Shown here piece after piece: positions 7,852-22,034 of a stretch of 64,000 nt of DNA. Position numbers and translations under genes: made by a program. The notes under the pieces are model-generated. The model searched no databases. It had not been told where the DNA came from and saw nothing but the letters and a program-made list of their open reading frames with translations. The first letter of the stretch is position 1, and each line of letters begins with the position of its first letter. The DNA comes from a phage. Location of the stretch: sequence record OZ346151.1; one strand, given 5' to 3'.

Positions 7852-8277
7852 ATGATCTATGAAATGCCAAAACTGATTCGTGACGATGCCCAAAACGCCC
7901 ACACCTTTATCATGGGCAAGCGCATGGATATTATTTGTCATAAAGATTTCTGGGAAGGTAGTTACTTCACAGAATATTTTGGTAAACTGGATAATGGTCT
8001 GCTGATCCAGTTCTACACCGATGCGGAAAACAATATCTGCTGGGAGTTCGAAACTGAAGATATCCATAAACTTTTCACCTTCCTAGGTATTAAGGTTGAG
8101 GCCAAGTTTGAAGAAGGCGAGTGCGACGATTGTGGATTCTACGAGGTAACAGATTTCTATCTCCCAAGTGGTGAGAACCTTTACTATGAAAGCCACTTCG
8201 GCAACTCAAATATGCCACAAGGTTGGGATGAGTTTTTTGAAATTGCGGAAGAGGAGCTGACATACCGTGATTATTGA
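7852..8277 (+). CDS. hypothetical protein
   Basis: 141 aa ORF. Confidence 0.45.
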   Translation: MIYEMPKLIRDDAQNAHTFIMGKRMDIICHKDFWEGSYFTEYFGKLDNGLLIQFYTDAENNICWEFETEDIHKLFTFLGIKVEAKFEEGECDDCGFYEVTDFYLPSGENLYYESHFGNSNMPQGWDEFFEIAEEELTYRDY

Positions 8278-8725
8278 TACTGTAGCGGGAGATTTAATCT
8301 CCCTTTTTAAGAGCGGTGCTGGTCACCTGATCCACGGTTGTAACTGCTTTCATACAATGGGTGCAGGCATAGCGAAAGATATTGCCCGTGAGTTCCCTCA
8401 AGCACTGGCAGCCGACAAAGAGACTGCCTATGGTAATCTGGACAAGCTGGGTATGTTTTCTTGTTGGGAGCATTTTGCCAAGAACAGGGTCGTATATGGA
8501 ATCAACCTGTATACCCAGTTCTACCCAGGGCCCAATGCTGAATACTTCTCAATAATGAAAGGTTTTGAGCGAGTCAACGAGGTATTCAAAGGTGTGTCAT
8601 TGCCGTTCTACATTCCTAAAATTGGATGCGGTATTGGCGGTCTAAAGTGGGAACATGTAGAAGATGTAATTAATCTTGCAACCACAGATATTGATGTGGT
8701 TGTAGTAGAGTACAAAAAGTGTTGA
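8267..8725 (+). CDS. Macrodomain protein (TARG1/DarG-like ADP-ribose hydrolase family)
   Basis: 152 aa; motif HLIHGCNCFHTMGAGIAKDIAREFP typical of TARG1-like macrodomains; GTG start with GAGGAG upstream. Confidence 0.55.
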   Translation: MIIDTVAGDLISLFKSGAGHLIHGCNCFHTMGAGIAKDIAREFPQALAADKETAYGNLDKLGMFSCWEHFAKNRVVYGINLYTQFYPGPNAEYFSIMKGFERVNEVFKGVSLPFYIPKIGCGIGGLKWEHVEDVINLATTDIDVVVVEYKKC

Positions 8726-8750
8726 CGACCATCTTCTGAGGTGATATAGT
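8722..8750 (+). promoter_or_regulatory. sigma70-type promoter (TTGACG-N17-TATAGT)
   Basis: Sequence match at 8722-8727 and 8745-8750. Confidence 0.45.
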
Positions 8751-8976
8751 TTCCACAACAACTAAGAGAGGAGAGCACTGTGGAGACTAAAATCTTAATT
8801 CTTGCTGTGGTAGATACAACCGAAGGAGCTATATTCGAATCTGCAGGGAGGTATTTCTACCTACCATACGGAAAAAGAACTTCCGAGCCAAGTAAAGATT
8901 CAATCCTCAAGGTGTTCCCGTGTGCTTTCTGGCTGGAGATTTTGGTATAAGATTGCAGAGGATTTGGGAGAGAATT

Positions 8977-9171
8977 ATGAGAAACAAGAAAGAGCTTTAC
9001 TCTGGTGAGTGGATCAACGATCAACAGGTGGGAGAGGTAACCTGCTTCCGATGTTTTACCAGGTACAATCTTAAAACTGCACCAAAAAGTGTTCCAAAGA
9101 CTGACGGTTATTACATAAAAGAACCTCATTGCCCAAAATGTAAATGCCGATTATACTGGAGTAACCTGTAA
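8977..9171 (+). CDS. small zinc-ribbon protein
   Basis: ORF track 8920..9171; ATG 8977; CFRC ... CPKCKC motif. Confidence 0.45.
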   Translation: MRNKKELYSGEWINDQQVGEVTCFRCFTRYNLKTAPKSVPKTDGYYIKEPHCPKCKCRLYWSNL

Positions 9172-9175
9172 AAGA

Positions 9176-9203
9176 TTGACATCTGAAAACTGCAGTGTAT
9201 AAT
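9176..9203 (+). promoter_or_regulatory. consensus sigma70 promoter (TTGACA-N16-TATAAT)
   Basis: TTGACA 9176-9181, TATAAT 9198-9203. Confidence 0.65.
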
Positions 9204-9234
9204 ATATGCATAAACTAACAGAGAGTGATGTATT

Positions 9235-9426
9235 ATGGTAATTTTTAACCGGGATGGTATCATAGTTAGACAGCACCCGTTCCTTGAATACTATCAAATT
9301 GAGCAATGGTGCTACGGGGATTGCAGTCACTCCTATGGGCAAAGTTGGGGATATCGTACAGTTTTTGAATCCACAGACCTTGACAAAGTAAAACAGAAAG
9401 TTTTAGAACTTCTTAACAACAAGTGA
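9235..9426 (+). CDS. hypothetical protein
   Basis: 63 aa ORF downstream of promoter. Confidence 0.4.
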   Translation: MVIFNRDGIIVRQHPFLEYYQIEQWCYGDCSHSYGQSWGYRTVFESTDLDKVKQKVLELLNNK

Positions 9427-9436
9427 GTATCGTGCC

Positions 9437-9769
9437 ATGGTAACATTGGAAAGACGTAAAGCTATTGCCGCCACACTGGCAGACATCTTTTGGGATTGTA
9501 ATTTAAAATCTACCCGAAATTGTGGTGCATCTGTAGATGTATTATTCCCACGGCCTACTATTGTTGCAATGGGCAACCTGCTCGATGTGGTATATGGAGC
9601 ATGGGACAAGGAAGGTGGATTCTATATCTGGCAACCTGACTACGGGACTTGGAAAGAGGTTAGTGGTTCTTCGGACTTCACTCCTGCAGTGGCTAAAATG
9701 GATGGCTGGAAAATCTATGTCGGTAACGACATGGAACTGAAAGGCGAAATTGTTTACTGGTTACCTTAA
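9437..9769 (+). CDS. hypothetical protein
   Basis: 110 aa ORF. Confidence 0.45.
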   Translation: MVTLERRKAIAATLADIFWDCNLKSTRNCGASVDVLFPRPTIVAMGNLLDVVYGAWDKEGGFYIWQPDYGTWKEVSGSSDFTPAVAKMDGWKIYVGNDMELKGEIVYWLP

Positions 9770-9790
9770 GAAAGTCCAGGAGATAAAGTT

Positions 9791-10036
9791 ATGAACAAAG
9801 GGTGGACATTTGTAGACGGCGTTAAAAACATGCCTCTAGGAAAGTATATTGTAGCCATGGCAGATGAGAATGGCAAGGTTGATTTCGGAGTTTGCGAGGT
9901 TGTTCTTGCAGGATCTGGTGACTATGCTCACAAAACTGGGATAATTAACGGTCATTTCTACTTTGATTACAACCCTGTTGTGGCGTATATGGCTATGCCA
10001 GAGTTCGAGCTCCCAAAGGAAGGTGCAGATGTTTAA
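9791..10036 (+). CDS. hypothetical protein
   Basis: 81 aa, RBS AGGAG upstream. Confidence 0.45.
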   Translation: MNKGWTFVDGVKNMPLGKYIVAMADENGKVDFGVCEVVLAGSGDYAHKTGIINGHFYFDYNPVVAYMAMPEFELPKEGADV

Positions 10037-10226
10037 GCTTAAATCTGCATGGAACATCGCTGTGGGGGACGAGATCCGTATCCCAGGTGGAAAGACCATT
10101 ATGAAAATATCTCGTATCGAGTACGAAGGTGATCGTGTATTTCATATCTTTGCAGAAGATGGTCGAGAGATTTATATACAGGTAGGATCTCACATCTATA
10201 TTCGTAAGAAAGGGGAGGACAAATGA
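10029..10226 (+). CDS. hypothetical protein
   Basis: ORF track 9963..10226; ATG 10029 preceded by AAGGAAGG. Confidence 0.4.
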   Translation: MFKLKSAWNIAVGDEIRIPGGKTIMKISRIEYEGDRVFHIFAEDGREIYIQVGSHIYIRKKGEDK

Positions 10227-10552
10227 CAGAGATCATCATTTCAACTGCAGGGTATGTATTCCTGACAATCATTGCACTGGCTATTTTGGTGACAGTGTAT
10301 GGGTTTGTTATCCTTCCTATCCTTGAGACATTTAGTTTGTGTCGGTGTTGGAGAAAAGCTTACGGTCCACAACCATGGAAGGACTGGCCCCACCTGGTGC
10401 GCTTAGCGTTCTCTTATGCTTACGATCACTCCAGTAGTGCATGCATAACCGGATACCACGCCCACAACTGGAGCTGGGAAGGGTTGAGGAAATGGAATGT
10501 TACAAAGACCATACCTCTGCGCATGTACAAACCTAAAAACAAAGACAACTGA
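10223..10552 (+). CDS. hypothetical membrane protein
   Basis: 109 aa, N-terminal hydrophobic helix. Confidence 0.45.
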   Translation: MTEIIISTAGYVFLTIIALAILVTVYGFVILPILETFSLCRCWRKAYGPQPWKDWPHLVRLAFSYAYDHSSSACITGYHAHNWSWEGLRKWNVTKTIPLRMYKPKNKDN

Positions 10553-10589
10553 TACTTGAAAATTCCTGGCATATCAAGTATAAGGGGGA

Positions 10590-11050
10590 TTTCTAAAATG
10601 GATTTCCTCCTTTTGATATTTCACCGGGCTGGATATTTTAAAATTCTTAGAAAATCAGAAAATGGATCGAAAACTAAAATGGATTTTTCAGAGTAGGCGC
10701 GACAAGCTGAATAACTCATCCTATCGTTTGCACCATATTCCAGGCCACCATTATAGATTTCCCACACATGCTAACCTCTCCCTACTAGAACTTCCTCCAC
10801 TTACCCTTGACCTTCTATGGTAACAATCTAACCGCTATCTTGAAGTTGCGGTGCAGCTTTCCAGGTACTCGATCTACTTTTCATTTCAGGGCTTGGATTT
10901 TCTGAAAATTTTTCTCGATAAATTTCTCAGTACTCGATCTGTTTTTCGTTTTCTGAATCGGATTTTCTGGAAATCGTTCCGGCTCTCAACCTGAAATTTT
11001 TGGGGACGAAATCGATTTTTCGTTTTCAGAAATGGATTTTTAAAATTTCT
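10590..11050. repeat. AT-rich region with degenerate direct/inverted repeats built on GGATTTT / AAATGGATTT / GTACTCGATCT
   Basis: GTACTCGATCT at about 10866 and 10931; GGATTTTCTG at about 10893 and 10960; AAATGGATTT at about 10597, 10681, 11031. No credible ORF. Confidence 0.5.
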
Positions 11051-11157
11051 ATATGGGAATATTTTAGTGGATACTGTTTTATAGGAAATTGTTACGGAGG
11101 GTAATTAGCATGCTAATTAAATTTATTAAATGCGAGGAGTTCTCATTTAGAATTTTG

Positions 11158-11370
11158 AATGATAATCATTCTCGTTTGCAGAATAACGGGCAGGCCCGGT
11201 GATTGTCTCCCGGCCCCTGTTGCCCCGGCTTGTTATTATAGTATCACACAGGACAAAGAAAGCAAGGACTTTTTGCATAAATTTTTAAATGATAATGATA
11301 ACCGTTCTCATTTTATGCAGCGCCCATCCCCGGTGGTTGTCTCCCCCGTCACCGGTGCCTGCCGTCCTTT
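11158..11370 (+). repeat. Two imperfect direct repeats (about 75 bp) with core CCGGTG(A/G)TTGTCTCCC, GC-rich
   Basis: Copy A about 11158-11240, copy B about 11283-11370; followed by repeated ACCTGGCGGGG motifs. Confidence 0.5.
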
Positions 11371-11736
11371 CGATATGTATATTGTGCCACCTGGCGGGGC
11401 CGCTGTCAACACTTTTCAAAAAATTTTTCTAACCTGGTGCGCTAACCGTTGCAACCTGGCGGGGCCAGCCTGGCAGGACCTAACTGACCAGGTAGGGGAG
11501 AATGAAGGCTTGTAAACCTGGTGGGCCTATGCTACAGGATAGGTAACAATTGAAGAGGAGGTACAAAAATGATATGATCCCCCTGGAAAATGTAGCTATT
11601 AATGACTCTGAGGCTATCGCCCTGGTTGAAAAGGCTATGGCGGGAGCGTTGGAACATAAAGAAGAGTACGAAAATGGTGGTTAACCTGGCGGGGGCGGCA
11701 GGTGGATTCTATCATAAAAATAATTTAAAATAGTAG

Positions 11737-11764
11737 TTGACAACAAGGTTAATCATGGTATTAT
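11737..11764 (+). promoter_or_regulatory. sigma70 promoter (TTGACA-N16-TATTAT)
   Basis: TTGACA 11737-11742, -10 11759-11764. Confidence 0.6.
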
Positions 11765-11814
11765 TACCCTACAAGGTGAACAACACCGCACTAACCAGTA
11801 AAGAGGATAAATTT

Positions 11815-12012
11815 ATGAACGCATACGGGATCAAAGTACGTCGCAACACTCGCCAGGTGGTCACCAATCAAGTGATTTGCCGGGTGGATGTAACCATCAA
11901 CAACGGGCAAGGCCTTTATAAATTTCGTCGCGGTCATAGCTATACCCTGCAACAGCTTAATCGTTGCGCCCTGACAAAAGGTCAGATCAACCACTGGTTT
12001 AATAAAAAATAA
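11815..12012 (+). CDS. hypothetical protein
   Basis: ORF track 11737..12012 starts at TTG inside the promoter; ATG 11815 preceded by AGAGGA. Confidence 0.45.
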   Translation: MNAYGIKVRRNTRQVVTNQVICRVDVTINNGQGLYKFRRGHSYTLQQLNRCALTKGQINHWFNKK

Positions 12013-12015
12013 GTA

Positions 12016-12044
12016 TTGACATACAGTCAGACACCAAATACACT
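12016..12044 (+). promoter_or_regulatory. sigma70 promoter (TTGACA-N17-TACACT)
   Basis: TTGACA 12016-12021, -10 12039-12044. Confidence 0.55.
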
Positions 12045-12076
12045 AAAAGCACAAAAGACACTAAGAGGATAAAATC

Positions 12077-12262
12077 ATGAAAACCACTACCTTTAATTTT
12101 GATAATGCAGACTTTTCTTTTTCTGATGTCAAGAACTGCCGCCGTGATCGTGGATTTTACAAGGCTTATAATCTGGTGGGCCTGGACGATGACAATAATT
12201 TGCACGAAGTAGCTGAGATCCAGCTTGACAGATTGGACGGGAAAGTACTAAAAACTTATTGA
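12077..12262 (+). CDS. hypothetical protein
   Basis: 61 aa, RBS AGAGGA upstream. Confidence 0.45.
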   Translation: MKTTTFNFDNADFSFSDVKNCRRDRGFYKAYNLVGLDDDNNLHEVAEIQLDRLDGKVLKTY

Positions 12263-12263
12263 G

Positions 12264-12309
12264 TTTATTTTTAGATGGCCTTGACACCAGGGCCATCAAT
12301 AAAGTAAAC
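12264..12309 (+). repeat. Repeated promoter/stem-loop element, copy 1
   Basis: TTATTTTTAGATGGCC-TTGACACCAG-GGCCATCAATAAAGTAAAC; stem GATGGCC/GGCCATC (12274-12297) encloses the -35 hexamer TTGACA. Confidence 0.6.
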
Positions 12310-12342
12310 TAACCACAGTTGAGCGGAAAAGGAGGCTTAAAG

Positions 12343-12462
12343 ATGAGCACTACACGCCAGCACACAAAGGTAACCATCATCGTTTGCATCATTGGGTACA
12401 TCCTGGCGCAAATGTTGATGGGTAGCGCCAACGGTGTCGCAAAATTTTTCTTAAACTTTTAA
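12343..12462 (+). CDS. small hydrophobic peptide (39 aa), below ORF-track threshold
   Basis: ATG 12343 preceded by AAAGGAGG; MSTTRQHTKVTIIVCIIGYILAQMLMGSANGVAKFFLNF; stop abuts next promoter. Confidence 0.4.
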   Translation: MSTTRQHTKVTIIVCIIGYILAQMLMGSANGVAKFFLNF

Positions 12463-12490
12463 TTGACAAGCTAACTTAAATCGATATAAT
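12463..12490 (+). promoter_or_regulatory. consensus sigma70 promoter (TTGACA-N16-TATAAT)
   Basis: TTGACA 12463-12468, TATAAT 12485-12490; leader hairpin GGGAA-AAC-TTCCC at 12503-12515. Confidence 0.7.
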
Positions 12491-12541
12491 AAGCACATAA
12501 ACGGGAAAACTTCCCAGAACACACAAAAGGAGAAAAACACC

Positions 12542-12883
12542 ATGACTACTATGACCGCCTCAGAAAAAGCTATGCAGATCGCTGAACTGAAAAAACAGAT
12601 CGCAGACCTTGAGAATAAGATCGATAACTTTGAAATCGACGAGGACAAGTACGACGAAAACTATGATGAATGGTTAGACGAGATCTACGGCGAAATTATG
12701 ATCGGAAACATTTCTTTTCTTCCGTCGCGTATCCTCAAGGAGCTAGATCCTATCGCTTACCGCTGCGGATTTAGCGACTACATCGACAGCCTGGATATTG
12801 AGGACGATGAAGAATACCAGGAATTACAGACAGAGTTAGAAGAAGCAAAAGAAGAGCTTGCGGAGCTGGAAGAAAACGAGTAA
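12542..12883 (+). CDS. hypothetical acidic coiled-coil protein
   Basis: 113 aa, D/E-rich; RBS AAGGAG. Confidence 0.5.
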   Translation: MTTMTASEKAMQIAELKKQIADLENKIDNFEIDEDKYDENYDEWLDEIYGEIMIGNISFLPSRILKELDPIAYRCGFSDYIDSLDIEDDEEYQELQTELEEAKEELAELEENE

Positions 12884-12884
12884 G

Positions 12885-12930
12885 CTTATTTTTAGATGGC
12901 CTTGACACCAGGGCCATCAATAAAGTAAAC
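12885..12930 (+). repeat. Repeated promoter/stem-loop element, copy 2
   Basis: Near-identical to copy 1; stem GATGGCC/GGCCATC 12895-12918. Confidence 0.6.
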
Positions 12931-12972
12931 TTTATACTGTTAACACTGAACTAATGCATAGGAGTTAAAACC

Positions 12973-13218
12973 ATGGCAGCACTAATCACCAAATATTATG
13001 CCCCTACCAACACCAAAAGCGCCCGTATCATGGTAAAAGGCTTCGGACGTAAAAAGGTGTACACCTGGGATTATGCCTTAGACACGGAAGACAACTACAC
13101 CAACGCAATGACCGATTTTATTAATGAACTAAATAAGCAGATCTTGACAAGTTATAAAGTGACCGATATTGCTTATATAGGTGAAGGCGGGATCTGTTTT
13201 GTAGGCATTGTGAAATAG
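12973..13218 (+). CDS. hypothetical protein
   Basis: 81 aa, RBS TAGGAG. Confidence 0.45.
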   Translation: MAALITKYYAPTNTKSARIMVKGFGRKKVYTWDYALDTEDNYTNAMTDFINELNKQILTSYKVTDIAYIGEGGICFVGIVK

Positions 13219-13292
13219 TTATTTTTTCGGTGGTCCTGGTTGCAGGGCCATCTATAAAGATAATTTATTAACACCATGAAAGGAGAAAGTAC

Positions 13293-13646
13293 ATGATCAG
13301 CGGGGCAAGTTTTATTATTGGCGCTATTGCTACGGCTTTAATTGTAAATAAGATCCAGGATAAAAAGGAAAGAGGAAGTACCGCCCTTGCAGAATATCCA
13401 TTTTGGGCATTCAACGATAACGAAGATTATATTATAAAGTATAAAAATAAAGAAGGTGACCAAGTAACACCGCGACCGATCCCGGCTTACAAAATGCAGG
13501 AAACACTATACCGCCTGGAGGCGGGTGGCGCAAAAATTGTAGACTTTTGGGGATACGACCACACAGATCAGGAAGTTATAAAGCGCCGTATCCGGGCTAT
13601 TCAGGCCAATATTGAAGTTAGCAAGGGGGGAATATATGAAAATTAA
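13293..13646 (+). CDS. hypothetical membrane-anchored protein
   Basis: 117 aa, N-terminal TM; RBS AAAGGAG. Confidence 0.45.
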   Translation: MISGASFIIGAIATALIVNKIQDKKERGSTALAEYPFWAFNDNEDYIIKYKNKEGDQVTPRPIPAYKMQETLYRLEAGGAKIVDFWGYDHTDQEVIKRRIRAIQANIEVSKGGIYEN

Positions 13647-13833
13647 TTTCGAGAAAATTGTAAAGCGCCCTCATGATTCCGAAGAGCTGCCAGAACGCCG
13701 CCAGCGTAACAATAAACTGAATAAGCCAAAAAGGTTTGGGAAGATCTGGCGTAATCATTATGATCGTAAATTGCCCGGCCTACTTTTGGAACGTGAACGA
13801 CAGGCAGAACGATACCGCCATAAAGACAAATAA
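13636..13833 (+). CDS. hypothetical basic protein
   Basis: ORF track 13612..13833; ATG 13636 after AAGGGGGG. Confidence 0.4.
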   Translation: MKINFEKIVKRPHDSEELPERRQRNNKLNKPKRFGKIWRNHYDRKLPGLLLERERQAERYRHKDK

Positions 13834-13841
13834 CAACCAAC

Positions 13842-13868
13842 GCCCCGCCATTGTGCGGGGCTTTTTAT
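13842..13868 (+). terminator. rho-independent terminator
   Basis: CGCCCCGC-CATTGT-GCGGGGC followed by TTTTT. Confidence 0.7.
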
Positions 13869-13990
13869 TTCTATCCTACGAATAGCGCCCCTGGTTGGCC
13901 CTGTAAGCGCCAAAAAGGCCCCCACCTATGCAATCGCCCCTTTAACCTGAAAACATCGCCCAGGGCCGTTTCATGGCGTTAAAAATATCA

Positions 13991-14018
13991 TTGACATCGT
14001 CAACAGGTTAGCTATACT
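13991..14018 (+). promoter_or_regulatory. sigma70 promoter (TTGACA-N16-TATACT)
   Basis: TTGACA 13991-13996, TATACT 14013-14018. Confidence 0.65.
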
Positions 14019-14050
14019 AACCACATCAAAGAGAGAAAGGAGTAAACGCC

Positions 14051-14311
14051 ATGCGTAAATTAAAAAATTTTGATAAAGTTGATGTTATCCTGAATAATTT
14101 TTACTACTGCAACAACAAGGCTATTTGGTGGCGTGATAGTTCCACCGATAAAGTCAGGGCGCGCTTTCTTCAGGGGCACTGGCAAGGCCGCCCAGTGATT
14201 AAAATCATGGGGCAATCGGTAGCGTTTAAAAATTGCCGCCGTGTTGATGACGTTGAGGAGATTTTAAACATTTTGCGCCACAATAATTTAAAAAATAGTG
14301 TTGACAAGTAA
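14051..14311 (+). CDS. hypothetical protein
   Basis: 86 aa, RBS AAAGGAG. Confidence 0.45.
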   Translation: MRKLKNFDKVDVILNNFYYCNNKAIWWRDSSTDKVRARFLQGHWQGRPVIKIMGQSVAFKNCRRVDDVEEILNILRHNNLKNSVDK

Positions 14312-14328
14312 GCCTCAATAAGTATACT
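14301..14328 (+). promoter_or_regulatory. sigma70 promoter (TTGACA-N16-TATACT)
   Basis: TTGACA 14301-14306, TATACT 14323-14328; leader hairpin GGCGGGAA-AAC-TTCCCGCC 14339-14357. Confidence 0.65.
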
Positions 14329-14385
14329 TAAACACACAGGCGGGAAAACTTCCCGCCACTAACAAAGAAAATAGGAGAAAATATC

Positions 14386-15009
14386 ATGACCACCGTTAAC
14401 ATTACCGCAGGTTACAATTTATCTTTCGACGTGCTGACCGACGAACAAAAAGAAAAAGCCGTTGAAATGGTCCGCGAAAGAGAAGAACACAGCGGGGATA
14501 ACTTTTTTGCAGAAAGTGTAATTGAATACTATAAAGAATATGTTTTTCCAGAGTATGGCCTTGAAGATACCGAAGTACATTGGTCAGGCTTTTGGTGCCA
14601 GGGTGACGGCGCGTCAATCAGTGCTGAAAACGTGGATTTAGAAAAATTTTTACGTAAAGTAAAGGCCCTGACCAAGTTCCGATCAATTCGTCACTTGTTC
14701 GGCACAATGCACGATGGCGAGTTATCAGCCAGTGTTGAACGCGACAAGTACAGCCATTACAGCCATGAAAACACTGTAAGCGGGTACATTGATACCACTT
14801 GGCTAGATCTGACCGCCAAACAAGAAAACAAAGTGGAAGACCTGGAAGAACTGATCACCGAGACGGTACGGGAGCTATCCCGCAAGGTTTACGTAGACCT
14901 GGAGGAGGCCTATCTAGAACAGTTCACCGCAGAAAACCTGATCGGCCTTATCGAGGCCAATGATTGGCGGTTTGATGTCGATGAATATGGTGAGATGACT
15001 TTTTCATAA
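14386..15009 (+). CDS. hypothetical acidic protein
   Basis: 207 aa, strongly D/E-rich; RBS TAGGAG. Confidence 0.5.
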   Translation: MTTVNITAGYNLSFDVLTDEQKEKAVEMVREREEHSGDNFFAESVIEYYKEYVFPEYGLEDTEVHWSGFWCQGDGASISAENVDLEKFLRKVKALTKFRSIRHLFGTMHDGELSASVERDKYSHYSHENTVSGYIDTTWLDLTAKQENKVEDLEELITETVRELSRKVYVDLEEAYLEQFTAENLIGLIEANDWRFDVDEYGEMTFS

Positions 15010-15017
15010 ATAAAGTG

Positions 15018-15045
15018 TTGCAATAACCTAAAAACCTGCTATATT
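15018..15045 (+). promoter_or_regulatory. sigma70 promoter (TTGCAA-N16-TATATT)
   Basis: Leader hairpin GGGGCAA-GACG-TTTGCCCC 15056-15074 then CA-rich tract and RBS. Confidence 0.5.
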
Positions 15046-15099
15046 AAAACTCAAGGGGGCAAGACGTTTGCCCCAACACAAAACAAAGAGGATAACATC

Positions 15100-15480
15100 A
15101 TGAAAAACACTACCAAGGCTATTGACACCGTTATGTTTAACCTGGTTACATTCCGTGAAGATATGAAAGATCTTCCTCGTGAAACAGTGTGCGACCATAT
15201 CGAAAACTATCGCAAACTAATCAAAGAGTTGCCTTTAAAACGTGATCAATATGCGGCTAACGCCATGCTTAATGCCATGATCAAAAAGATGATCCAGTGT
15301 GATTTAACCCTGGCCTATGATTATGCAGGCGGTCGTTTTGCAGTATACAATCAGCCCGTGCCCGGTATGAGCACCACCGAAGAATTGCACGCGCTCAATC
15401 TAAAACAAGACGTGTGGGATAGTATGCCTCGCGTGGTGGTATGGGTAGAAAGCGGAAAGATTTACGGCGATAATTTTTAA
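15100..15480 (+). CDS. hypothetical protein
   Basis: 126 aa, RBS AGAGGA. Confidence 0.5.
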   Translation: MKNTTKAIDTVMFNLVTFREDMKDLPRETVCDHIENYRKLIKELPLKRDQYAANAMLNAMIKKMIQCDLTLAYDYAGGRFAVYNQPVPGMSTTEELHALNLKQDVWDSMPRVVVWVESGKIYGDNF

Positions 15481-15490
15481 TCAGGTAGCA

Positions 15491-15515
15491 GGCGGCATAT
15501 TTGCCGCCTTATTGT
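15491..15515 (+). terminator. putative rho-independent terminator
   Basis: GGCGGCA-TATT-TGCCGCC followed by TTATTGTT. Confidence 0.5.
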
Positions 15516-15544
15516 TAATCAGAACTGTAAAAGAGGTACATAGA

Positions 15545-15916
15545 ATGGAATTTATTATTTTGGCTGTATTGGTTGCCTTGTTTAACGCCTGGATCGCTGG
15601 CAAGATGGGAAGATCCGCCTTTTTATGGTTTATTATATCTATTTTCCTGGGGGTGGTTGCAACTATTGTATTGGTTATCCTTGCAATTGTTGACAAGGGG
15701 AATAATAGAAAGGGTAAAGTATTTTCAGACCTGTACGACGCTCAAACGTTTGTCAACGCCTATTATAGTGATCTTCCAGTCTCCCTACGTTGCAGCCTTG
15801 CACAACAGGTTTTCGATGAAGCTAAAACCAGAGATCACGCCCATGAGATTTGTTTAACTGAGGCGGATCGCCTATTTGAGAGGAATAGAAAATATGTGGA
15901 CCAGCCGTTTAAATAA
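15545..15916 (+). CDS. hypothetical membrane protein (two TM helices)
   Basis: ORF track 15512..15916; ATG 15545 after AAGAGG. Confidence 0.45.
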   Translation: MEFIILAVLVALFNAWIAGKMGRSAFLWFIISIFLGVVATIVLVILAIVDKGNNRKGKVFSDLYDAQTFVNAYYSDLPVSLRCSLAQQVFDEAKTRDHAHEICLTEADRLFERNRKYVDQPFK

Positions 15917-16026
15917 TGCCACGTTAATTAACCCCTTTAGTAAAGATTTGAAGCCAGCCGCCTGGCGGGATGGATTCAATAACGAACGCTTTATTTTCAG
16001 GCCTGATCTTGAGGAATTTTATAACA

Positions 16027-16254
16027 ATGGATCGAACAACAGCGGAGATAATTTTTCTTGTGGTGTGTGTCGTGATAGGACTCCTGGGGGCCATTGTAGA
16101 TCGCGTCACTACTACCAGAAGGAAAGGGGAGACGATGACAACCAAGGATAAGCCCCGCACCGATAAGGTGCGCCGTGTTATGGTATGGCTTGAGATCATC
16201 GCCCTTGAAATATTGTTAGGCGTAGGGATGTATTTTATCTCTGTAAGTAACTGA
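16027..16254 (+). CDS. hypothetical membrane protein
   Basis: ORF track 15970..16254; hydrophobic segments; start uncertain. Confidence 0.4.
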   Translation: MDRTTAEIIFLVVCVVIGLLGAIVDRVTTTRRKGETMTTKDKPRTDKVRRVMVWLEIIALEILLGVGMYFISVSN

Positions 16255-16258
16255 TAAC

Positions 16259-16290
16259 GGCCCCCGATCCCTGGGGGGCCTAACTTTTTT
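16259..16290 (+). terminator. rho-independent terminator
   Basis: GGCCCCC-GATCCCTG-GGGGGCC followed by TAACTTTTTT. Confidence 0.7.
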
Positions 16291-16313
16291 CAAAAAATTT
16301 TTCTTCCGGGGTG

Positions 16314-16341
16314 TTGCAATCCGGTCCTGAATATGGATAAT
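16314..16341 (+). promoter_or_regulatory. sigma70 promoter (TTGCAA-N16-GATAAT)
   Basis: Leader hairpin GGGGA-AACA-TCCCC 16352-16365, then CCAACACAAAAACC and RBS. Confidence 0.5.
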
Positions 16342-16397
16342 AACAATCAACGGGGAAACATCCCCACCAACACAAAAACCAGAAAGGAGAAACAAAA

Positions 16398-16598
16398 ATG
16401 AGCAACAATATCCGCGTTATTAACTTCAAAAAAGAAGAAAAAATTGCCGTGCTGATTGACGGTCAAGAAATCTTCAAGGGCGACTATGAAGATCATCAAA
16501 CGGCGATTAGTATCACTCGCGTGATTGGTTACCATAATTTTTACCCCCAAGGCGCTGAGGCGGCGGTTAAACGAATCAAAGAGATTGTAGGCCTGTAA
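16398..16598 (+). CDS. hypothetical protein
   Basis: 66 aa, RBS AAAGGAG. Confidence 0.45.
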   Translation: MSNNIRVINFKKEEKIAVLIDGQEIFKGDYEDHQTAISITRVIGYHNFYPQGAEAAVKRIKEIVGL

Positions 16599-16600
16599 AA

Positions 16601-16646
16601 TTTATTTTTAGATGGCCTTGACTCTAGGGCCATCAATAAAGTAAAT
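16601..16646 (+). repeat. Repeated promoter/stem-loop element, copy 3
   Basis: Stem GATGGCC/GGCCATC 16611-16634 conserved; loop differs from copies 1 and 2 (TTGACTCTAG). Confidence 0.6.
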
Positions 16647-16685
16647 TTAAACCCTGTTAAAATACCACGCAGTTAACAAGGAGTA

Positions 16686-16991
16686 ATGATCATGTTTATC
16701 CAGGCTAATAATCTTTATTTCTTTGATGGTCAGATCGTAGATGGTGTGGAAGTGGAGATCACTGGGTGCCCTGGTGGTCAGGCTATGACTTTTCGGAATA
16801 ATGCCTTTGATGATTCTCATATCGTTATGAGAATGGAAGTTACAAAGCTGGACGACAAGAAAACGCTCATTGACTATTCCGTGAAAGATCATCCAGACTA
16901 CCACATGATCTATGGTGATTTGTGCATTGTTGACCGTGACAAGGTGGGCGGCATTGTGATCGCTATTGTGAACGATGTTTTCTCTGTATAG
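16686..16991 (+). CDS. hypothetical protein
   Basis: 101 aa, RBS AAGGAG. Confidence 0.5.
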   Translation: MIMFIQANNLYFFDGQIVDGVEVEITGCPGGQAMTFRNNAFDDSHIVMRMEVTKLDDKKTLIDYSVKDHPDYHMIYGDLCIVDRDKVGGIVIAIVNDVFSV

Positions 16992-17049
16992 TTCCGGCAA
17001 ATGATGCAAAATAAGGCCCCTAGCAGGGCCTACAGCGATATAATCACAT

Positions 17050-17085
17050 AAAGGCCATGCAACCGCATGGCCTTTATTATTTTGG
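17050..17085 (+). terminator. rho-independent terminator
   Basis: AAAGGCCATGC-AACC-GCATGGCCTTT followed by ATTATTTT. Confidence 0.7.
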
Positions 17086-17130
17086 CGTTACAGCGGCCCC
17101 AAGGCGCTTAAAAATTTTTTAAAGAAGTAC

Positions 17131-17158
17131 TTGCATCAAGCCCTACAATATGGATAAT
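17131..17158 (+). promoter_or_regulatory. sigma70 promoter (TTGCAT-N16-GATAAT)
   Basis: TTGCAT 17131-17136, GATAAT 17153-17158. Confidence 0.5.
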
Positions 17159-17216
17159 AGGACGTGTCAGGGGGGGGAGGCCCCAATCATTAACCGGATA
17201 GATAGGAGTTAAAACC

Positions 17217-17501
17217 ATGGCTATTGTTACCGCTGGCGATGTAGTAGAAATGGAAGCAAAATACTTAAAAGCGGGTATGCATATCCTACGCAACGATCTT
17301 GAACTGGTCCTGACAATGGTTGACTATAACCCAGGGCAAGATTATCCAAGTGTTGACTACTTTTTTGAGTATGTTGATGAAGAGTTGAAAGAGGATGAGG
17401 CCTATTGCGGTGAGTTCTGCAACTTCTTTTGTCCTGATGAGGTTGTAAAGGTTATCTATCAACCTGGCGTAGCTTTCCCGCTGCACGCTATCAATAAATA
17501 A
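17217..17501 (+). CDS. hypothetical protein
   Basis: 94 aa, RBS TAGGAG. Confidence 0.5.
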   Translation: MAIVTAGDVVEMEAKYLKAGMHILRNDLELVLTMVDYNPGQDYPSVDYFFEYVDEELKEDEAYCGEFCNFFCPDEVVKVIYQPGVAFPLHAINK

Positions 17502-17505
17502 ACCT

Positions 17506-17530
17506 GGCGGGGGCCTTTTCGGCCCCCGCC
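17506..17530 (+). terminator. strong GC hairpin (terminator-like; no U-tract)
   Basis: GGCGGGGGCC-TTTTC-GGCCCCCGCC, perfect 10-bp stem right after stop codon. Confidence 0.45.
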
Positions 17531-17564
17531 TGAAATTATGAAAAATAAAAAGAGGCAAACTATC

Positions 17565-17798
17565 ATGATGGAACAAATTAAACGCGCTGAGGCTATTAAT
17601 GGCAATGTAATCTATTTTGTCAGCAAAAACGAAAAAGGCGTACCCTATGCGGCGGTAATAGTACAGCCTGACGGCGATTATTGGTGCACTGTGTACGGCG
17701 CTTATTCTTTTGGGCGTCCAGTGCATGATAAAATTTTGAAAGTAGCGAACCCTACCGGGAAAAATATTACAGCAGAAAAATTTTTTGAAAAAAGTTGA
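17565..17798 (+). CDS. hypothetical protein
   Basis: ORF track 17538..17798; ATG 17565 after AAGAGG. Confidence 0.45.
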   Translation: MMEQIKRAEAINGNVIYFVSKNEKGVPYAAVIVQPDGDYWCTVYGAYSFGRPVHDKILKVANPTGKNITAEKFFEKS

Positions 17799-17822
17799 CA
17801 TGACCATATAAAACTGTAGTAT
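17795..17822 (+). promoter_or_regulatory. sigma70 promoter (TTGACA-N16-TAGTAT)
   Basis: TTGACA 17795-17800; leader hairpin GGGGC-AACAA-GCCCC 17834-17848. Confidence 0.5.
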
Positions 17823-17874
17823 ATAAATCAAAGGGGGCAACAAGCCCCACCAACCACAAAGAGGATAAAAAATC

Positions 17875-18054
17875 ATGGCTATTATTGCAAAGACCGAGAT
17901 CGTAGGCTTAGATTCTATTCTCCTCGCATATGAGGAAGCTATAGAAATGTATGTGGTTTCCTATGGTGAGTATATCCGTGAATATGAATCTATTGATCTA
18001 GCTTTTGAATGTTATATTCGCCAGGTTAATAAAGCGTACGATGATTATCGTTAA
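17875..18054 (+). CDS. small protein (59 aa), below ORF-track threshold
   Basis: ATG 17875 preceded by AGAGGA; MAIIAKTEIVGLDSILLAYEEAIEMYVVSYGEYIREYESIDLAFECYIRQVNKAYDDYR. Confidence 0.45.
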   Translation: MAIIAKTEIVGLDSILLAYEEAIEMYVVSYGEYIREYESIDLAFECYIRQVNKAYDDYR

Positions 18055-18145
18055 AATAGTTTGACAACAAACAACCATCTAACAAAGCATAATACATAAG
18101 GTGGTAGAATGATCCGCCACCCGGAACAAAGAAGAGGTAAACACC

Positions 18146-18391
18146 ATGAAAAGCAATAAAGGTTATAACGGTTACAAAAACAAAACTCATTGGAATGTAA
18201 GCCTTTGGATTAATAACGATGAGTCATTGTACCGGTTGGCCCAAGGATTTATTAACGCTAATGCTAATCGTAATGATGCGGCGCGGGATATGATGCTTTT
18301 TCTGGAGCTAACCGGACAAGATAAGACCCCGGACGGCTTCAAGTACAGCACTACGGCGATCCGTGCCGCGATGGTTGGAATGAAACACTAA
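18146..18391 (+). CDS. hypothetical protein
   Basis: 81 aa, RBS AAGAGG; last gene of rightward array. Confidence 0.5.
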   Translation: MKSNKGYNGYKNKTHWNVSLWINNDESLYRLAQGFINANANRNDAARDMMLFLELTGQDKTPDGFKYSTTAIRAAMVGMKH

Positions 18392-19524
18392 AAGCACATA
18401 GCCGCCAGATCTCAGAATTTACGTACGCTCACCAGTCTATAGCCTGCTAAGTATTTATTCCAACCATAGAATAACGGAATAGTCAATACCTGCATAAAAT
18501 AATTATTCGTGTAAACTGCATAACATAAATCGGCTAGGATGTCAACATTTTTCGTAAACAGCTCGAAATTATAACGGTGAGTTATAATAAACAGAGAAAT
18601 CTTTAGTCGTCTAATGTTTACTGTACATTACTATACTGACTGGAATCATTAGATGACTAAGAGAAAGATAAGAAATCATTAACAATGCAATTGTTTTATT
18701 CGTAACAATAAGGCAACTATGCAAACGGATGGCATGGCGCGACGGAGTCGCGACATAATATAAAAGCAGTAACCATCACCCCCGTGATAGTTTGTCTGCA
18801 AACTATTAATCAGATCATAGTTGCCTTGTATTTAGTTAATCATGACATAACAAGCAAGGCAACTATAGATCTGCTAATAGTTGCCCTGCTTTTATATTAT
18901 GTCATAGATTATTAGCCTGTTAATTGTTAGTCAGTCAAATCAACAACGTTATCATTTCAGTCTTTATTGTTGTTGATCGTTATTGTTATCATGCAAACGA
19001 ATGGCATGGCTTATCATTTTTGAGTAAACAATCTATACGTGAACAGTGAGGCATGCAATAGTAAGGGCGGGAATAATGAGAGTGTAAACTGTCAAGGGTA
19101 ATGTCAATTATATCAATCGTGTCAGTTATGTCACCATTATGTCAGCAGAGTTTTTCTCCTCTTTGTCAAGTGCTGCATGCCCACACAAATAGTAAGAAAT
19201 ATAATTGTTATGTGCGTAAACAGTAACTCATGTTATCAATCCCTGTATGTATCGCCAGTGGTGCGCATAATGGGTATTATGTTAAATTGCCCGTAATGAT
19301 AATGGTTCTCACAATGATAGGTATTCTCATTCCCCCACACAAAATAGATTGCAAATGTTGTGCCACTATGTGAACGGCCTCACCTATTAATTTGCCTCAC
19401 TGCCTCGATATTTGAGAATTATCATAAGAATGAGAAGTATTCCCATTTCGTCCGCCTGGCAGCACTCCAGTCGCTACGGCTCAGAACAGGGCAGAATTGT
19501 GTCCATTCAGATATTTCTGTCTGG

Positions 19525-20732
19525 CTCTTCAGGTCTGTGTGGGAAAAGTCCACCTCTCTGGCGGGGCATGGGGTCATGACGGGAAAATTGCAGGTCAATT
19601 AAAAAATTTACGTGGTGTATGAAGCGCTCTTCAGGTAAGGCATGTATTATGGGATGAAACCCTCTTCAGGCAATGATATTTGTGGGTGTGATATTTGCTG
19701 GAAAGCCAGATATGACGGGACTCCCGGCGGGGCAGGGGTAGTACAGACAGGGGAAATATGGAGGATGTGGTTAGGTGAATTGATCAGACAGGTAGAGTAT
19801 GGAATATGTTACAGGTATGTTAAATAGGGCGGCTGAATATCTGTAGGATTTGTGTGTAAAATCAAAGACTTAAGTGGTGTTGTGGTATTTTCTATAAATA
19901 ATTCAAGTTTAATAGGTAATATTTGTCTCTATTCGCTTTGTGTGGTAAACAGATTCAGATGAGATTGGTTTACAAGCGTATACATAATATACAAATTAAA
20001 GATACAAGAAACCCCCCTCCCCCTTCGGCTACCATTCACCTTTTCCTCTGACTGGTACTTAAACACTTATTCAGACTCTTCAGGTTATCACCCATATATC
20101 ATATGGCAGTGACTGGTGTCCTCCGGCCCCTCTTTCGTCACCCGTCCGCTTCGCCATGCTAATGCCATAGCCAATGGTTCGGTTGTTCACCCTGTTCACT
20201 CAGGTGTATCTCCATACCCCTTCAAAACGAAGAGAACAGAAAACCCGAATTACTCGGTAAAAGAAAAGAGAAGAACTTAATTTTATCAGGATAGGCAAGA
20301 ATGTCAAGGCATGACTGCTCACTAAACAAGCAAACAGTCATGTGTGGGAGGTAAGTGATTGTGGTGGTAGGAAATTTAGTTGAAAGATGTGTTATAGGTG
20401 CTTCCAGCACTTTAGCCGGGCAGCTAATTGTGTGTCAGTCCAGCGGTTCATCCTCTACTTCACTGAAATCAATGTTCATGGTCTCTTCCCAACCATCGAT
20501 CTCAGCACAAGAGTGGAGTTCTTTAGGGTTTACTCCTAAAGCCTCAGCAACAGAGTCTATATTTAACACCTCTGGCAGGTATGATTCATCAAATTCAAGG
20601 TAAATCAGGCCACGAGTGTTGTCAGCTCCACCAAATATTTCTATCTTCATAAAATCTCCTCTGGAAATGAGAGTGTGAACAGGGTTTTATACGTCCCAAT
20701 GCACAGGAATTATGCACGTTTTCCTCTTCAGG
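19525..20732 (+). repeat. Five dispersed copies of the 9-mer CTCTTCAGG in a noncoding region
   Basis: Copies at 19525-19533, 19627-19635, 19662-19670, 20076-20084, 20724-20732, all same strand. Confidence 0.5.
20435..20650 (-). CDS. hypothetical protein
   Basis: 71 aa; last ORF of leftward array. Confidence 0.4.
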   Translation of the reverse strand: MKIEIFGGADNTRGLIYLEFDESYLPEVLNIDSVAEALGVNPKELHSCAEIDGWEETMNIDFSEVEDEPLD

Positions 20733-20771
20733 CCATGCTTTAGCATGAGGAACCTGTGTGGGCTCGGTGCT

Positions 20772-20984
20772 TCATAGTCTACCACCTCTGAACTCTTCGT
20801 GCTCAGGCATAATAGAGAACCAGATATCTACGATGTCCTCCCACGTCAGGTCATCAGCCTCAGGATCTGTCTGGGACGAAGATGAAGAGTCCTCAGAATC
20901 TAAGTTTTCCTCTTTAACTGGCTCATCCAAGGGACATATGGTCACTCCTTCGGATGTCTCTTCAGATGCATGTGTGTTGATCAT
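20772..20984 (-). CDS. hypothetical acidic protein
   Basis: 70 aa ORF. Confidence 0.35.
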   Translation of the reverse strand: MINTHASEETSEGVTICPLDEPVKEENLDSEDSSSSSQTDPEADDLTWEDIVDIWFSIMPEHEEFRGGRL

Positions 20985-21344
20985 GTTCCACCCGTGAGTA
21001 TTCCGGCAACAGCTGCTATGGACGTAATGATCATCAGGATCACCACTAAAACTTCGGACAATGTTCTCATTGTGTACTCCATATTCTACAAACTATGTGT
21101 GGATACTATCACTGGATCGGTAATGTGTCAACAGAAACGCCGCGAGGGTTTGGTTAAAATCCGAGCGTATGGTGATTTGGGTCAAAACGGACGTGCGTTC
21201 TCGCTACGCTCGAAAGAGAGATTTGTTTGTAGGAAGCTCTTAAACGCTCTGTAATGAGATTATCTGTCCAAGGTATGCAATCGTGCACCAGATAAAGAAA
21301 AGGACGCCACAGAGCGTCCTAGGTGTCTTAAATTTGATATTTTG

Positions 21345-21656
21345 CTATACCCATGAGGGCTTATCAAGGTTGGAGTAGCTGAAAGGTGTCAAAAGGTGAC
21401 TGTCAAAATCTCTCAAACTATCTAAATCTTTTTCCTCGTCCTGACACCATCTGTGCCTACATTTATTGTTGTAGTGCATAGAATGCATAGCGTTCTGCAA
21501 CTTAACAGGTACAAGTGATTCAGGAGTAGATAGTATTGTTGGGTATGCCAGAATCACCTCAAACAGTGGAAACACATCGAAACTAAAGTCTACCTCTGCA
21601 GAGGTTGATGGCATATAGGAGTATTTAGCCGCCTTTGTAGACATAATCCACCTCAC
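21345..21656 (-). CDS. hypothetical protein
   Basis: 103 aa ORF. Confidence 0.4.
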   Translation of the reverse strand: MRWIMSTKAAKYSYMPSTSAEVDFSFDVFPLFEVILAYPTILSTPESLVPVKLQNAMHSMHYNNKCRHRWCQDEEKDLDSLRDFDSHLLTPFSYSNLDKPSWV

Positions 21657-21979
21657 ACAGGTTTGATAATACCTTTACCGAATAATTCTTCGTATCTAAT
21701 CTTATCCGGATCCCACTCTTGGATAATTTCGAAGACAATATCCAACCCAGGGATAATCACTTCTCCAGTGTCAAGTTTGGCAAGAACAAAACCAGAAGGC
21801 TGAATGGTTTCCCAGTTGCGCCGATTGGAATAGAAGACCTCGAAAATATCGCCGACCTTTATCTGTTGATCAAGATGTTCAAGATTCTCTTTCATATAGA
21901 CGCAGCGGATTTTTCGTGCAGGCCATAGACCACCTGCATCACGTTCATTTAGCTCTTTTACAGTAATCGGTATACCCAT
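21653..21979 (-). CDS. hypothetical protein
   Basis: 108 aa, coupled to downstream ORF. Confidence 0.45.
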   Translation of the reverse strand: MGIPITVKELNERDAGGLWPARKIRCVYMKENLEHLDQQIKVGDIFEVFYSNRRNWETIQPSGFVLAKLDTGEVIIPGLDIVFEIIQEWDPDKIRYEELFGKGIIKPV

Positions 21980-22034
21980 CTCAAATCTCCTTCATAGATA
22001 GTAAAAAGAGGGGCCCAAGCCCCCCTCTTTGTCA

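Follow-up and report, generated by a model that had tools for sequence, protein, structure and literature searches.

The kinds of intergenic element considered in this paper are already well known; the particular element that we describe is specific to one genus of phages. It is a 49-nt repeat found in four copies in the early-gene region of a phage genome (sequence record OZ346151.1), of which one stretch of 64,000 nucleotides, referred to throughout as the window, was analysed. Several described systems resemble it. The repetitive extragenic palindromic sequences and bacterial interspersed mosaic elements (REP/BIME) of enterobacteria are extragenic imperfect palindromes that follow stop codons inside operons, occur in multiple copies, and have been proposed to stabilise the 3' ends of mRNA. 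The early RNase III signals of phage T7 lie between the cistrons of early polycistronic mRNA, which is made by the host RNA polymerase. A target of E. coli RNase III comprises approximately two helical turns (about 20-22 bp), in which internal loops confine cleavage to a single strand, so that a protective hairpin remains at the 3' end (Pertzev and Nicholson, PMC1540722). The promoter-early-stem-loop (PeSL) cassettes of T4-like phages (Arbiol et al. 2010, PMC2839356; Comeau et al. 2014, PMC4122927) contain short G(n)-loop-C(n) hairpins that act as terminators or attenuators, together with near-consensus sigma-70 early promoters (TTGACA-N17-TATAAT type) behind an AT-rich tract; they lie in plastic regions of small, non-essential genes and give circular excision products (mini-circles). 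In the promoter-coupled terminators of bacteria (Fletcher et al., bioRxiv 10.64898/2026.08.19.745784), the DNA of a stem-loop supplies a -35 hexamer and the -10 hexamer lies just downstream, so that one dual-purpose element stands between tandem genes. We report here that the base pairing of the 49-nt element is under selection at the RNA level, and that its architecture and several of its key base pairs, when aligned by a structural model, match those of the T7 early RNase III signals.

The four copies are direct repeats of 49 nt each, all on the + strand. Their scores with a covariance model of the element itself are given in bits.

12262-12310, + strand: copy 1, the reference copy, starting at the A of the TGA stop codon of open reading frame (ORF) 12077-12262, next gene from 12343; free energy of folding (dG) -25.1, z -6.6; 81.5 bits
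12883-12931, + strand: copy 2, 98% identical to copy 1, starting at the final A of the TAA stop codon of ORF 12542-12883, next gene from 12973; 81.1 bits
13217-13265, + strand: site 4, a degenerate copy, 71% identical to copy 1 and containing no TTGAC, after ORF 12973-13218, next gene from 13293; dG -24.0; 72.8 bits
16599-16647, + strand: copy 3, 92% identical to copy 1, after ORF 16398-16598, next gene from 16686 or 16692; 79.8 bits

That is, for each of the four, a small + strand ORF has its stop codon 0-3 nt from the beginning of the copy, and 28-45 nt separate the end of the copy from the next start codon. The genes that flank the copies all encode small proteins of unassigned function (ORFan early genes). 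Such a set of repeats is not expected by chance: a 44-nt core was searched for with up to 3 mismatches allowed and has three occurrences, none differing at more than two positions, compared with 0.00 expected from 100 shuffles, and the inverted repeat GATGGCC-N10-GGCCATC occurs five times with at most two mismatches, compared with 0.12 expected, although one of these five, at 20832, is unrelated to the element. A preliminary description of this DNA had placed four copies at these positions, and all four were found there, on the + strand. It had also suggested a wider search for copies; a search of the 64-kb window with the element's own covariance model, filters off, returned none beyond the four. 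The conservation in related genomes that it had looked to as a check is likewise observed, since the four sites are kept across 15 genomes, save where copies 1 and 2 have fused.

The whole 49 nt folds on the + strand as a single bipartite hairpin of 20 bp. The lower stem consists of 10 pairs and is A/U-rich (AGUUUAUUUU / AAAGUAAACU), and the upper stem, also of 10 pairs, is G/C-rich (GAUGGCCUUG / CAGGGCCAUC) and closed by a 4-nt loop. All copies have an internal loop of 2 and 3 nt between the two stems, which measures 1x3 and 2x4 nt in two variants. The upper stem and its tetraloop are located as follows.

12274-12297, + strand: copy 1, GAUGGCCUUG-ACAC-CAGGGCCAUC
12895-12918, + strand: the equivalent segment of copy 2
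13229-13252, + strand: the equivalent segment of site 4
16611-16634, + strand: the equivalent segment of copy 3

Predicted free energies for the four copies range from -21.5 to -25.1 kcal/mol on the + strand, with z from -4.8 to -6.6. The - strand folds poorly (z from -1.5 to -2.8), because several of the pairs are G-U. The hairpin is retained when the copies are folded in 150-nt contexts; for copy 2 the bottom 2-3 pairs of the lower stem are lost in this context, other pairings replacing its weak base. A T-run upstream of the hairpin pairs with an A-run downstream, and the AAUAAAG that follows the upper hairpin pairs back to make the second helix. The sequence 3' of the hairpin is AAUAAAGUAAA, which holds no U-tract; no T-run follows the hairpin on either strand, and a terminator scan did not list the copies. 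Since there is no U-tract after the hairpin, it is not an intrinsic (rho-independent) terminator, and we rejected that explanation.

This fold differs from that of the preliminary description, in which a 7-bp stem enclosed a 10-nt loop containing TTGAC(A/T). The structure is instead a 49-nt, 10 + 10 bp bipartite fold, with TTG in the stem and only ACA in or adjoining the loop. It had further been proposed that the loop of copy 3 differs while its stem is retained. The pairing is indeed kept and one loop base does differ, but the stem has changed as well, a G-C pair having become G-U.

A separate inverted repeat is found just 3' of copy 3, at 16647-16686, with arms of 14 nt (TTAAACCCTGTTAA / TTAACAAGGAGTAA). 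In the predicted fold this repeat pairs with the Shine-Dalgarno sequence of the next gene, AAGGAG, and it may control translation of that gene.

In order to assess selection on the pairing, we took the corresponding region from 12 GenBank phages and two IMG/VR contigs and extracted every copy; the pairing statistics refer to 28 distinct copies from 15 genomes. Standard pairs occupy 98.6% of the pair cells, a value that was reached in 0 of 500 shuffles and that compares with 35-56% in slid controls. Changes on both sides of a pair are seen at four lower-stem pairs. For example, compensatory changes between phages at site 4 convert one pair between U-A and C-G, and another pair appears as A-U, G-U and G-C. 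One-sided changes in the upper stem are nearly all compatible with wobble pairing. Over all copies there are 70 G-U cells and 5 A-C cells, and thus selection acts on the sense RNA rather than on a DNA palindrome.

The distribution of variation agrees with that of pairing. At sites 1-3 the nucleotide diversity is 0.008-0.034 in the stems, 0.07-0.14 in the loops and 0.05-0.17 in the flanks, so that variation in the stems is lower by a factor of 5-15. Site 4, which is 29% diverged and has lost TTGAC, keeps all 20 pairs by means of G-U pairs and compensatory changes. In copy 1 of a relative that is 84% identical, single-base insertions are confined to the tetraloop and the 3' internal loop and leave the helix intact, and they shift the spacing between the -35-like and -10-like hexamers from 18 to 20. 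Because site 4 retains the structure with no -35 hexamer, and because the relative retains it with an altered spacing, the structure and not the promoter is the common selected feature. We conclude that the pairing is under selection at the RNA level, and that the selection on structure proposed in the preliminary description is far stronger than could be seen there.

The T7 sites R0.3, R0.5, R1, R1.1 and R1.3 were folded and aligned, and a covariance model was built from these five alone. When folded, each of the five sites has an A/U lower stem, then an internal loop, and above it a G/C upper stem of 9-10 bp that includes G-U pairs and is capped by a loop of 4-5 nt. In a filters-off search of the 64-kb window, on both strands, the top four hits of the T7-only model were the four copies of the element, each on the + strand, at full length and with no non-standard pairs, scoring 24.8-30.2 bits with E-values, which are rough, of 8e-5 to 2e-3. 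Individually, copy 1 scored 30.2 bits (E 7.8e-5), copy 2 28.8, copy 3 25.5 and site 4 24.8. By comparison, the best non-T7 hit of the same model in 727 kb of unrelated DNA (default filters) scored 20.1 bits, and the best hit in 75 kb of early regions from other genera (filters off) scored 15.0 bits.

We also compared individual base pairs, mapping the R1.1 numbering onto the T7 sequence and onto the model alignment of the copies. According to Pertzev and Nicholson (PMC1540722), the distal box of an E. coli RNase III target consists of U-A then U-G, the middle box of two pairs and the proximal box of four pairs; the preferred proximal pairs at positions 1-3 are G-C, A-U and A-U, a G-C or C-G pair at position 2 blocks binding, and the sequence of the tetraloop is irrelevant to cleavage. 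The element has 10 + 10 pairs on the + strand, which corresponds to the length of such a target, and a central internal loop in all copies. Counting down from the loop, pairs two and three of sites 1-3 are U-A then U-G and are oriented as in R1.1; those of site 4 are U-A / C-G, as in T7 R0.5 and R1.3. The middle box of copies 1-3 is C-G and G-C, and the placing of G-C as the second middle-box pair is a substitution reported to raise reactivity (PMC1540722). Proximal position 2 is A-U at sites 1-3, an acceptable pair. Judged from this alignment, the fit to RNase III is good in architecture and partial in the fine determinants.

The likeness to the T7 signals extends over a G/C upper stem with G-U pairs, a loop of 4-5 nt, an asymmetric internal loop and an A/U-rich lower stem, amounting to about two turns, and over an intercistronic position in early polycistronic mRNA that host RNA polymerase makes. 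T7, too, has minor promoters, both E. coli and T7, in the same intergenic gaps. The two differ in several respects. There is no sequence homology between them (blastn with the element matched Vequintavirus records only); the internal loop of the element is smaller, 2x3 nt compared with about 4x5 nt in T7; proximal positions 1 and 3 differ; a -35-like hexamer lies inside the element's hairpin; and cleavage of the element is a prediction from its sequence.

One other hairpin in the window scores as runner-up with the T7 model, on both strands (17-19 bits, E 0.08-0.23). It lies at 17034-17090 and is a perfect 13-bp hairpin, ATAAAGGCCATGC-AACC-GCATGGCCTTTAT, which shares CCUUUAU(G) with the T7 sites and scores as a terminator as well. 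It adjoins a gene-sized indel of 365 bp at 16984-17004, which 5 of the 10 GenBank relatives under comparison have, as does IMG/VR contig L013.

The reading that we favour, and to which we give about half of our belief, is that the element would be an RNase III-type processing and stabilising hairpin in early operons, with a possible overlapping internal promoter in the manner of PeSL. A structured RNA signal would be read on the sense (+) strand of early polycistronic transcripts. Host RNase III would bind the two helical turns and cut in or beside the internal loop, so separating the upstream from the downstream cistrons, and the upstream mRNA would be left with a 3'-terminal hairpin as a shield against 3'-5' exonucleases. 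A terminating ribosome would melt the lower stem transiently, because the lower stem overlaps the stop codon. With less certainty, the DNA of sites 1-3 might double as a sigma-70 promoter starting about 7 nt past the element, as in PeSL and promoter-coupled-terminator cassettes, in which case the two T of the -35 hexamer would also serve RNase III as its distal box.

A number of observations weigh against RNase III processing. The proximal box is sub-optimal, with U-A at position 1 where R1.1 has G-C and G-C at position 3 where R1.1 has A-U, and at site 4 the pair at position 2 is G-U in the proximal box and C-G in the distal box. (Deviations comparable to these are seen in T7 R1, R0.5 and R1.3; T7 R1, for example, has C-G at proximal position 3.) The AC in the loop of sites 1-3 is invariant, which RNase III does not explain, because tetraloop sequence is irrelevant to cleavage, and for which a -35 hexamer is the better fit. 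With 18 pairs, a covariance model gives a good score to any strong bipartite hairpin, and the E-values that it returns are rough. Because the 15 genomes compared are closely related, they provide few independent changes, and the element is restricted to one genus, Vequintavirus. Finally, since the searched literature holds no RNA or transcript-end data for Vequintavirus, cleavage by RNase III is deduced from shape alone.

The invariant bases in the loop belong to a set of promoter-like hexamers.

12281-12286 and 12305-12310, + strand: copy 1, TTGACA, 18-nt spacer, TAAACT; 10 of 12 consensus matches
12902-12931, + strand: copy 2, TTGACA-18-TAAACT; 10 of 12 consensus matches
16618-16647, + strand: copy 3, TTGACT-18-TAAATT; 9 of 12 consensus matches

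Over the genomes compared, sites 1-3 have the sigma-70-like form TTGAC(A/T/G)-18-TAAA(C/T)T, preceded by a T-rich tract, TTTATTTTTA. In the 39 copies at these sites in the 15 genomes TTGAC is constant and the two bases after it are variable, which, as a pattern of sequence conservation, is that expected of a -35 hexamer. A consensus promoter at 13991-14018 has a -10 and start region (TATACTAACCACAT) homologous to the one in copy 1 (TAAACTAACCACAG). The spacer of the element is 18 nt, compared with 16 nt in the phage's consensus promoters. Promoter matches of 9 of 12 positions number 60 in the region and 33.5 in shuffles, and thus about half are expected by chance. Moreover, the TT of TTGACA and the entire -10 hexamer are also accounted for by the pairing; in copy 3, for instance, the -10 has changed from C to T, and a G-to-A change on the opposite strand of the stem compensates for it. 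The preliminary description had read the element as a promoter for the next gene. To that extent it was right that sigma-70-like hexamers are present in three copies; site 4 has no -35 hexamer, and the 18-nt spacer is atypical. From these sequence features, promoter activity of copies 1-3 might go either way, the chances being roughly equal. A promoter would be compatible with the RNA reading and not a replacement for it.

Promoter-plus-hairpin cassettes of another type are the norm in this phage and its relatives, and the window has two of them, at 12463-12527 and 14301-14366. They consist of a consensus promoter (TTGACA-16-TATAAT/TATACT), then CACA and, where the transcript is predicted to have its 5' end, a G/C hairpin (CGGGAAAACTTCCCG). 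Cassettes built in this way (TTGACA-N16/17-TAnnaT-CACATAGG-GGCGGGAAnnGGTTTCCCGCC) occur 6-15 times per 10 kb in phi92 and Phapecoctavirus ukendt; this cassette type was examined in L171 (8500-16700) and L172 (7700-16700). Judged by its sequence, it is probably a 5' stabiliser or a PeSL-like element.

The copies also take part in recombination. Three relatives, namely IMG/VR contig L022 and phages ECP26 and phiWec189, have one fused element in place of copies 1 and 2. This element joins the upstream flank of copy 1 to the downstream flank of copy 2, and the 621 bp between is gone. What these three genomes are missing is a two-gene cassette, with the following content in the window.

12311-12882, + strand: the cassette between copies 1 and 2, absent in L022, ECP26 and phiWec189
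12343-12462: a 39-aa gene
12463-12490: a consensus promoter with a 5' hairpin
12542-12883: a 113-aa gene

The three fused genomes differ in the type of site 4 that they carry, and this suggests more than one fusion event or later exchange. In addition, the same variants recur at different sites of one genome, such as the loop ACAC at sites 1 and 2 and ACTT at sites 2 and 3, and an A-to-G change in the 3' internal loop recurs at sites 1 and 3 within a genome. Identity at variable positions is 53% between sites within genomes and 38% at the same site between genomes, with a permutation p-value of 0.0006 when phylogeny is ignored. From the shared variants within genomes and from the fusions it follows that the copies exchange sequence and can delete the DNA between them. 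We conclude from this comparison of sequences that the copies evolve in concert, and that recombination between copies 1 and 2 has deleted the cassette in some relatives.

Other indels nearby, namely the 365-bp one at 16984-17004 and a deletion with its junction at 12215-12221, are not located at the element. The latter, which the repeat did not mediate, is private to the window: relative to all 10 relatives compared, about 685 bp is deleted, with 7 bp of overlap at the junction. The 61-aa ORF at 12077-12262 is a chimera of the N-terminus of the phrog_7028 gene and the C-terminus of the next gene (phrog_13245). An apparent gene replacement downstream of copy 1 in L023 was rejected, the gene there being a divergent orthologue.

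How do these properties compare with those of the remaining known systems? The element resembles the PeSL cassettes in being a stop-to-start intergenic element among small ORFan early genes, in combining sigma-70-like boxes and an AT-rich tract with a stem-loop that contains G-U (G-T) pairs (in one PeSL subclass the stem-loop overlaps the -35), and in that its repeats recombine with one another and bound indels between close relatives; it lies, as they do, in a plastic region of small genes and recombination indels. It differs from them in its 20-bp bipartite helix, its 18-nt spacer, the copy that has no promoter, and the absence of a U-tract and with it of the sequence signature of an intrinsic terminator; its phage belongs to the Vequintavirinae and is not T4-like. 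The resemblance to PeSL drawn in the preliminary description is thus a partial one, which holds for the early ORFan setting, the hexamers and the recombination, and fails for the helix, the U-tract and the type of phage. A promoter-coupled terminator shares with the element a stem-loop whose DNA supplies the -35 hexamer, a -10 hexamer just downstream, and a dual-purpose design between tandem genes; it differs in having a T-tract and in terminating, where the element has no T-tract. The REP/BIME likeness lies in imperfect palindromes after stop codons within operons, in several copies, with a proposed role as 3' mRNA stabilisers. The differences are that REP sequences form a high-copy repeat family of the host chromosome, whereas the element has four copies per phage genome, all of them in phage and none in the 5,426 E. 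coli genomes searched, has a longer bipartite helix, and has no associated transposase.

The explanations that rival RNase III processing can now be weighed together. If the promoter were the main function, copies 1-3 would be early sigma-70 promoters in a PeSL-type cassette, and the stem-loop would attenuate or insulate transcription and provide homology for shuffling. We consider this possible, but we would not expect it to be correct. It would account for hexamers that match at 9-10 of 12 positions behind a T-rich tract, for an invariant TTGAC followed by two variable bases, and for the homology of the copy 1 -10/start region to the canonical promoter at 13991-14018; known PeSL subclasses include stem-loops that overlap the -35, bacterial promoter-coupled terminators likewise place the -35 in stem-loop DNA, promoter-plus-hairpin cassettes abound in the intergenic DNA of this phage, phi92 and ukendt, and loss of the cassette between copies 1 and 2 has occurred. 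Yet site 4, with no -35, retains the whole structure, and the divergent relative keeps the structure while its spacer moves from 18 to 20; a promoter has no use for a 10-bp A/U lower stem that undergoes compensatory changes; the hairpin, having no U-tract, is not an intrinsic terminator; the 18-nt spacer departs from the 16 nt found in this phage's consensus promoters; chance would supply about half of the 9-of-12 matches in the region; and neither the rV5 authors nor the GenBank records name promoters at these sites. A different proposal, which we regard as more tentative than established and hold with similar reserve, is that the 49 nt contain two codes. In that case the DNA would be an internal sigma-70 promoter, with the -35 TT serving as distal box and the -10 hexamer as the 3' strand of the lower stem, the read-through RNA would be an RNase III site, and the element would also be the crossover point for cassettes. 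Processed and newly initiated downstream mRNAs would then have nearly the same 5' end, and genes would be insulated from upstream transcription.

Under a third explanation the hairpin would be a passive, REP-like stabiliser of mRNA, which blocks 3'-5' exonucleases or stalls them after RNase E cuts, with no involvement of RNase III. In its favour are the position of a stable, G/C-rich hairpin immediately behind stop codons within operons, the selection on the sense-strand RNA, and a proximal box that is non-optimal for RNase III. But a 10-bp G/C hairpin would suffice as a barrier, and the conserved, co-varying second turn, the central internal loop and the U-A/U-G step would not be needed; we think this explanation unlikely. 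Two further possibilities seem to us very improbable, and to about the same degree. In one, GATGGCC-N10-GGCCATC would be a double-stranded DNA operator, at which a dimeric regulator, encoded by phage or host, would bind and silence the overlapping promoter. The perfect 7-bp inverted repeat does overlap the -35-like hexamer, and terminator-like palindromes in bacteria can double as transcription-factor sites. Changes in the arms, however, keep the pairing on the + strand only (G-U there, A-C mismatches on the other strand), the half-sites are not preserved (at site 4 GGTGGTC faces GGCCATC), and pairing over 10 + 10 bp exceeds any plausible operator. Nor are the half-sites on the same face of the helix, because their centres are 17 bp apart. 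We rejected the operator as the main explanation on account of the strand-specific G-U pairs and the pairing over 20 bp. In the other, the element would be a small functionless palindrome, spread or homogenised by recombination and of consequence only as a recombination hotspot. This would be in keeping with the near-identity of copies 1 and 2 amid unrelated flanks, with concerted evolution, and with the fusion of copies 1 and 2 in three genomes, but not with the retention of four sites in all 15 genomes save for that fusion, nor with stems far less variable than loops and flanks, nor with site 4, in which every pair is kept at 29% divergence with compensatory changes between phages.

Turning to the distribution of the element, the region 11000-18000 of the window is 93-95% identical to many Vequintavirus phages (rV5-like, Vequintavirinae), which are myophages of E. 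coli. A blastn search with the element matched 121 phage records, every one of them Vequintavirus, at about three blastn-detectable places per record. A search of E. coli, covering 5,426 genomes and 20,395 records, gave zero matches. A pattern scan of IMG/VR returned 38 loci, among which two contigs are true relatives and the remainder chance matches; a pattern scan of metagenomes returned 120 loci, mostly by chance because the pattern is too short, with one true contig. No Rfam family was found in 8000-22000 at E of 1 or below. The sampled early regions of phi92, ukendt, SSE121 and Kashira have no hairpin like the element or like a T7 site, and these phages use a different promoter-plus-5'-hairpin cassette instead. 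The element is not annotated as promoter, terminator or repeat in the GenBank records of rV5, HdK5 and isim, and it is not among the entries of Table S4 of the rV5 genome paper, whose authors name no promoter at these sites. In the literature that we searched we found neither Vequintavirus transcriptomics nor an earlier account of the repeat.

Roughly 20 GenBank records numbered MG0656xx (for example L043, MG065662.1) are named 'Campylobacter phage' and filed under Vequintavirus; they are marked UNVERIFIED and are unannotated. Their sequences in this region agree to about 95% with those of E. coli Vequintavirus genomes, and the Campylobacter host label is probably wrong.

Several other features of the window are recorded here. 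Upstream of the element, 10550-11230 contains about 600 bp without a convincing ORF, which is the 'non-coding' box of the rV5 paper. Within it are three direct repeats of 47-57 nt at 10855-11040, spaced at 65-74 nt, and about 80-100 nt around 11120-11230 that are 78-88% identical in phages of Klebsiella, Serratia, Salmonella, Cronobacter, Enterobacter and Pectobacterium, which belong to other genera. The stretch could be an origin or a non-coding RNA. At 18600-18900, where gene orientation switches, there are inverted repeats with arms of 22 nt (18603-18660), 15 nt (18852-18891) and 12 nt (18817-18866), which may be bidirectional regulatory or terminator structures. At 59619-59704 four repeats of 21-22 nt lie head to tail, each containing the inverted repeat GTCCGT-N3-ACGGAC, an arrangement like that of an iteron or operator array.

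All functional claims made here are derived from sequence, but the RNase III reading makes a definite prediction, namely that rnc-dependent RNA ends should occur at four defined positions. The rV5-like phages are widely used in the biocontrol of E. coli O157 and are represented in the BASEL collection. The element marks natural cassette boundaries for the engineering of such phages. If the functions proposed above are borne out, it would be a compact case in which one sequence serves as promoter, RNA processing site and recombination joint, and the T7 style of processing early operons by RNase III would extend to an unrelated large myovirus.

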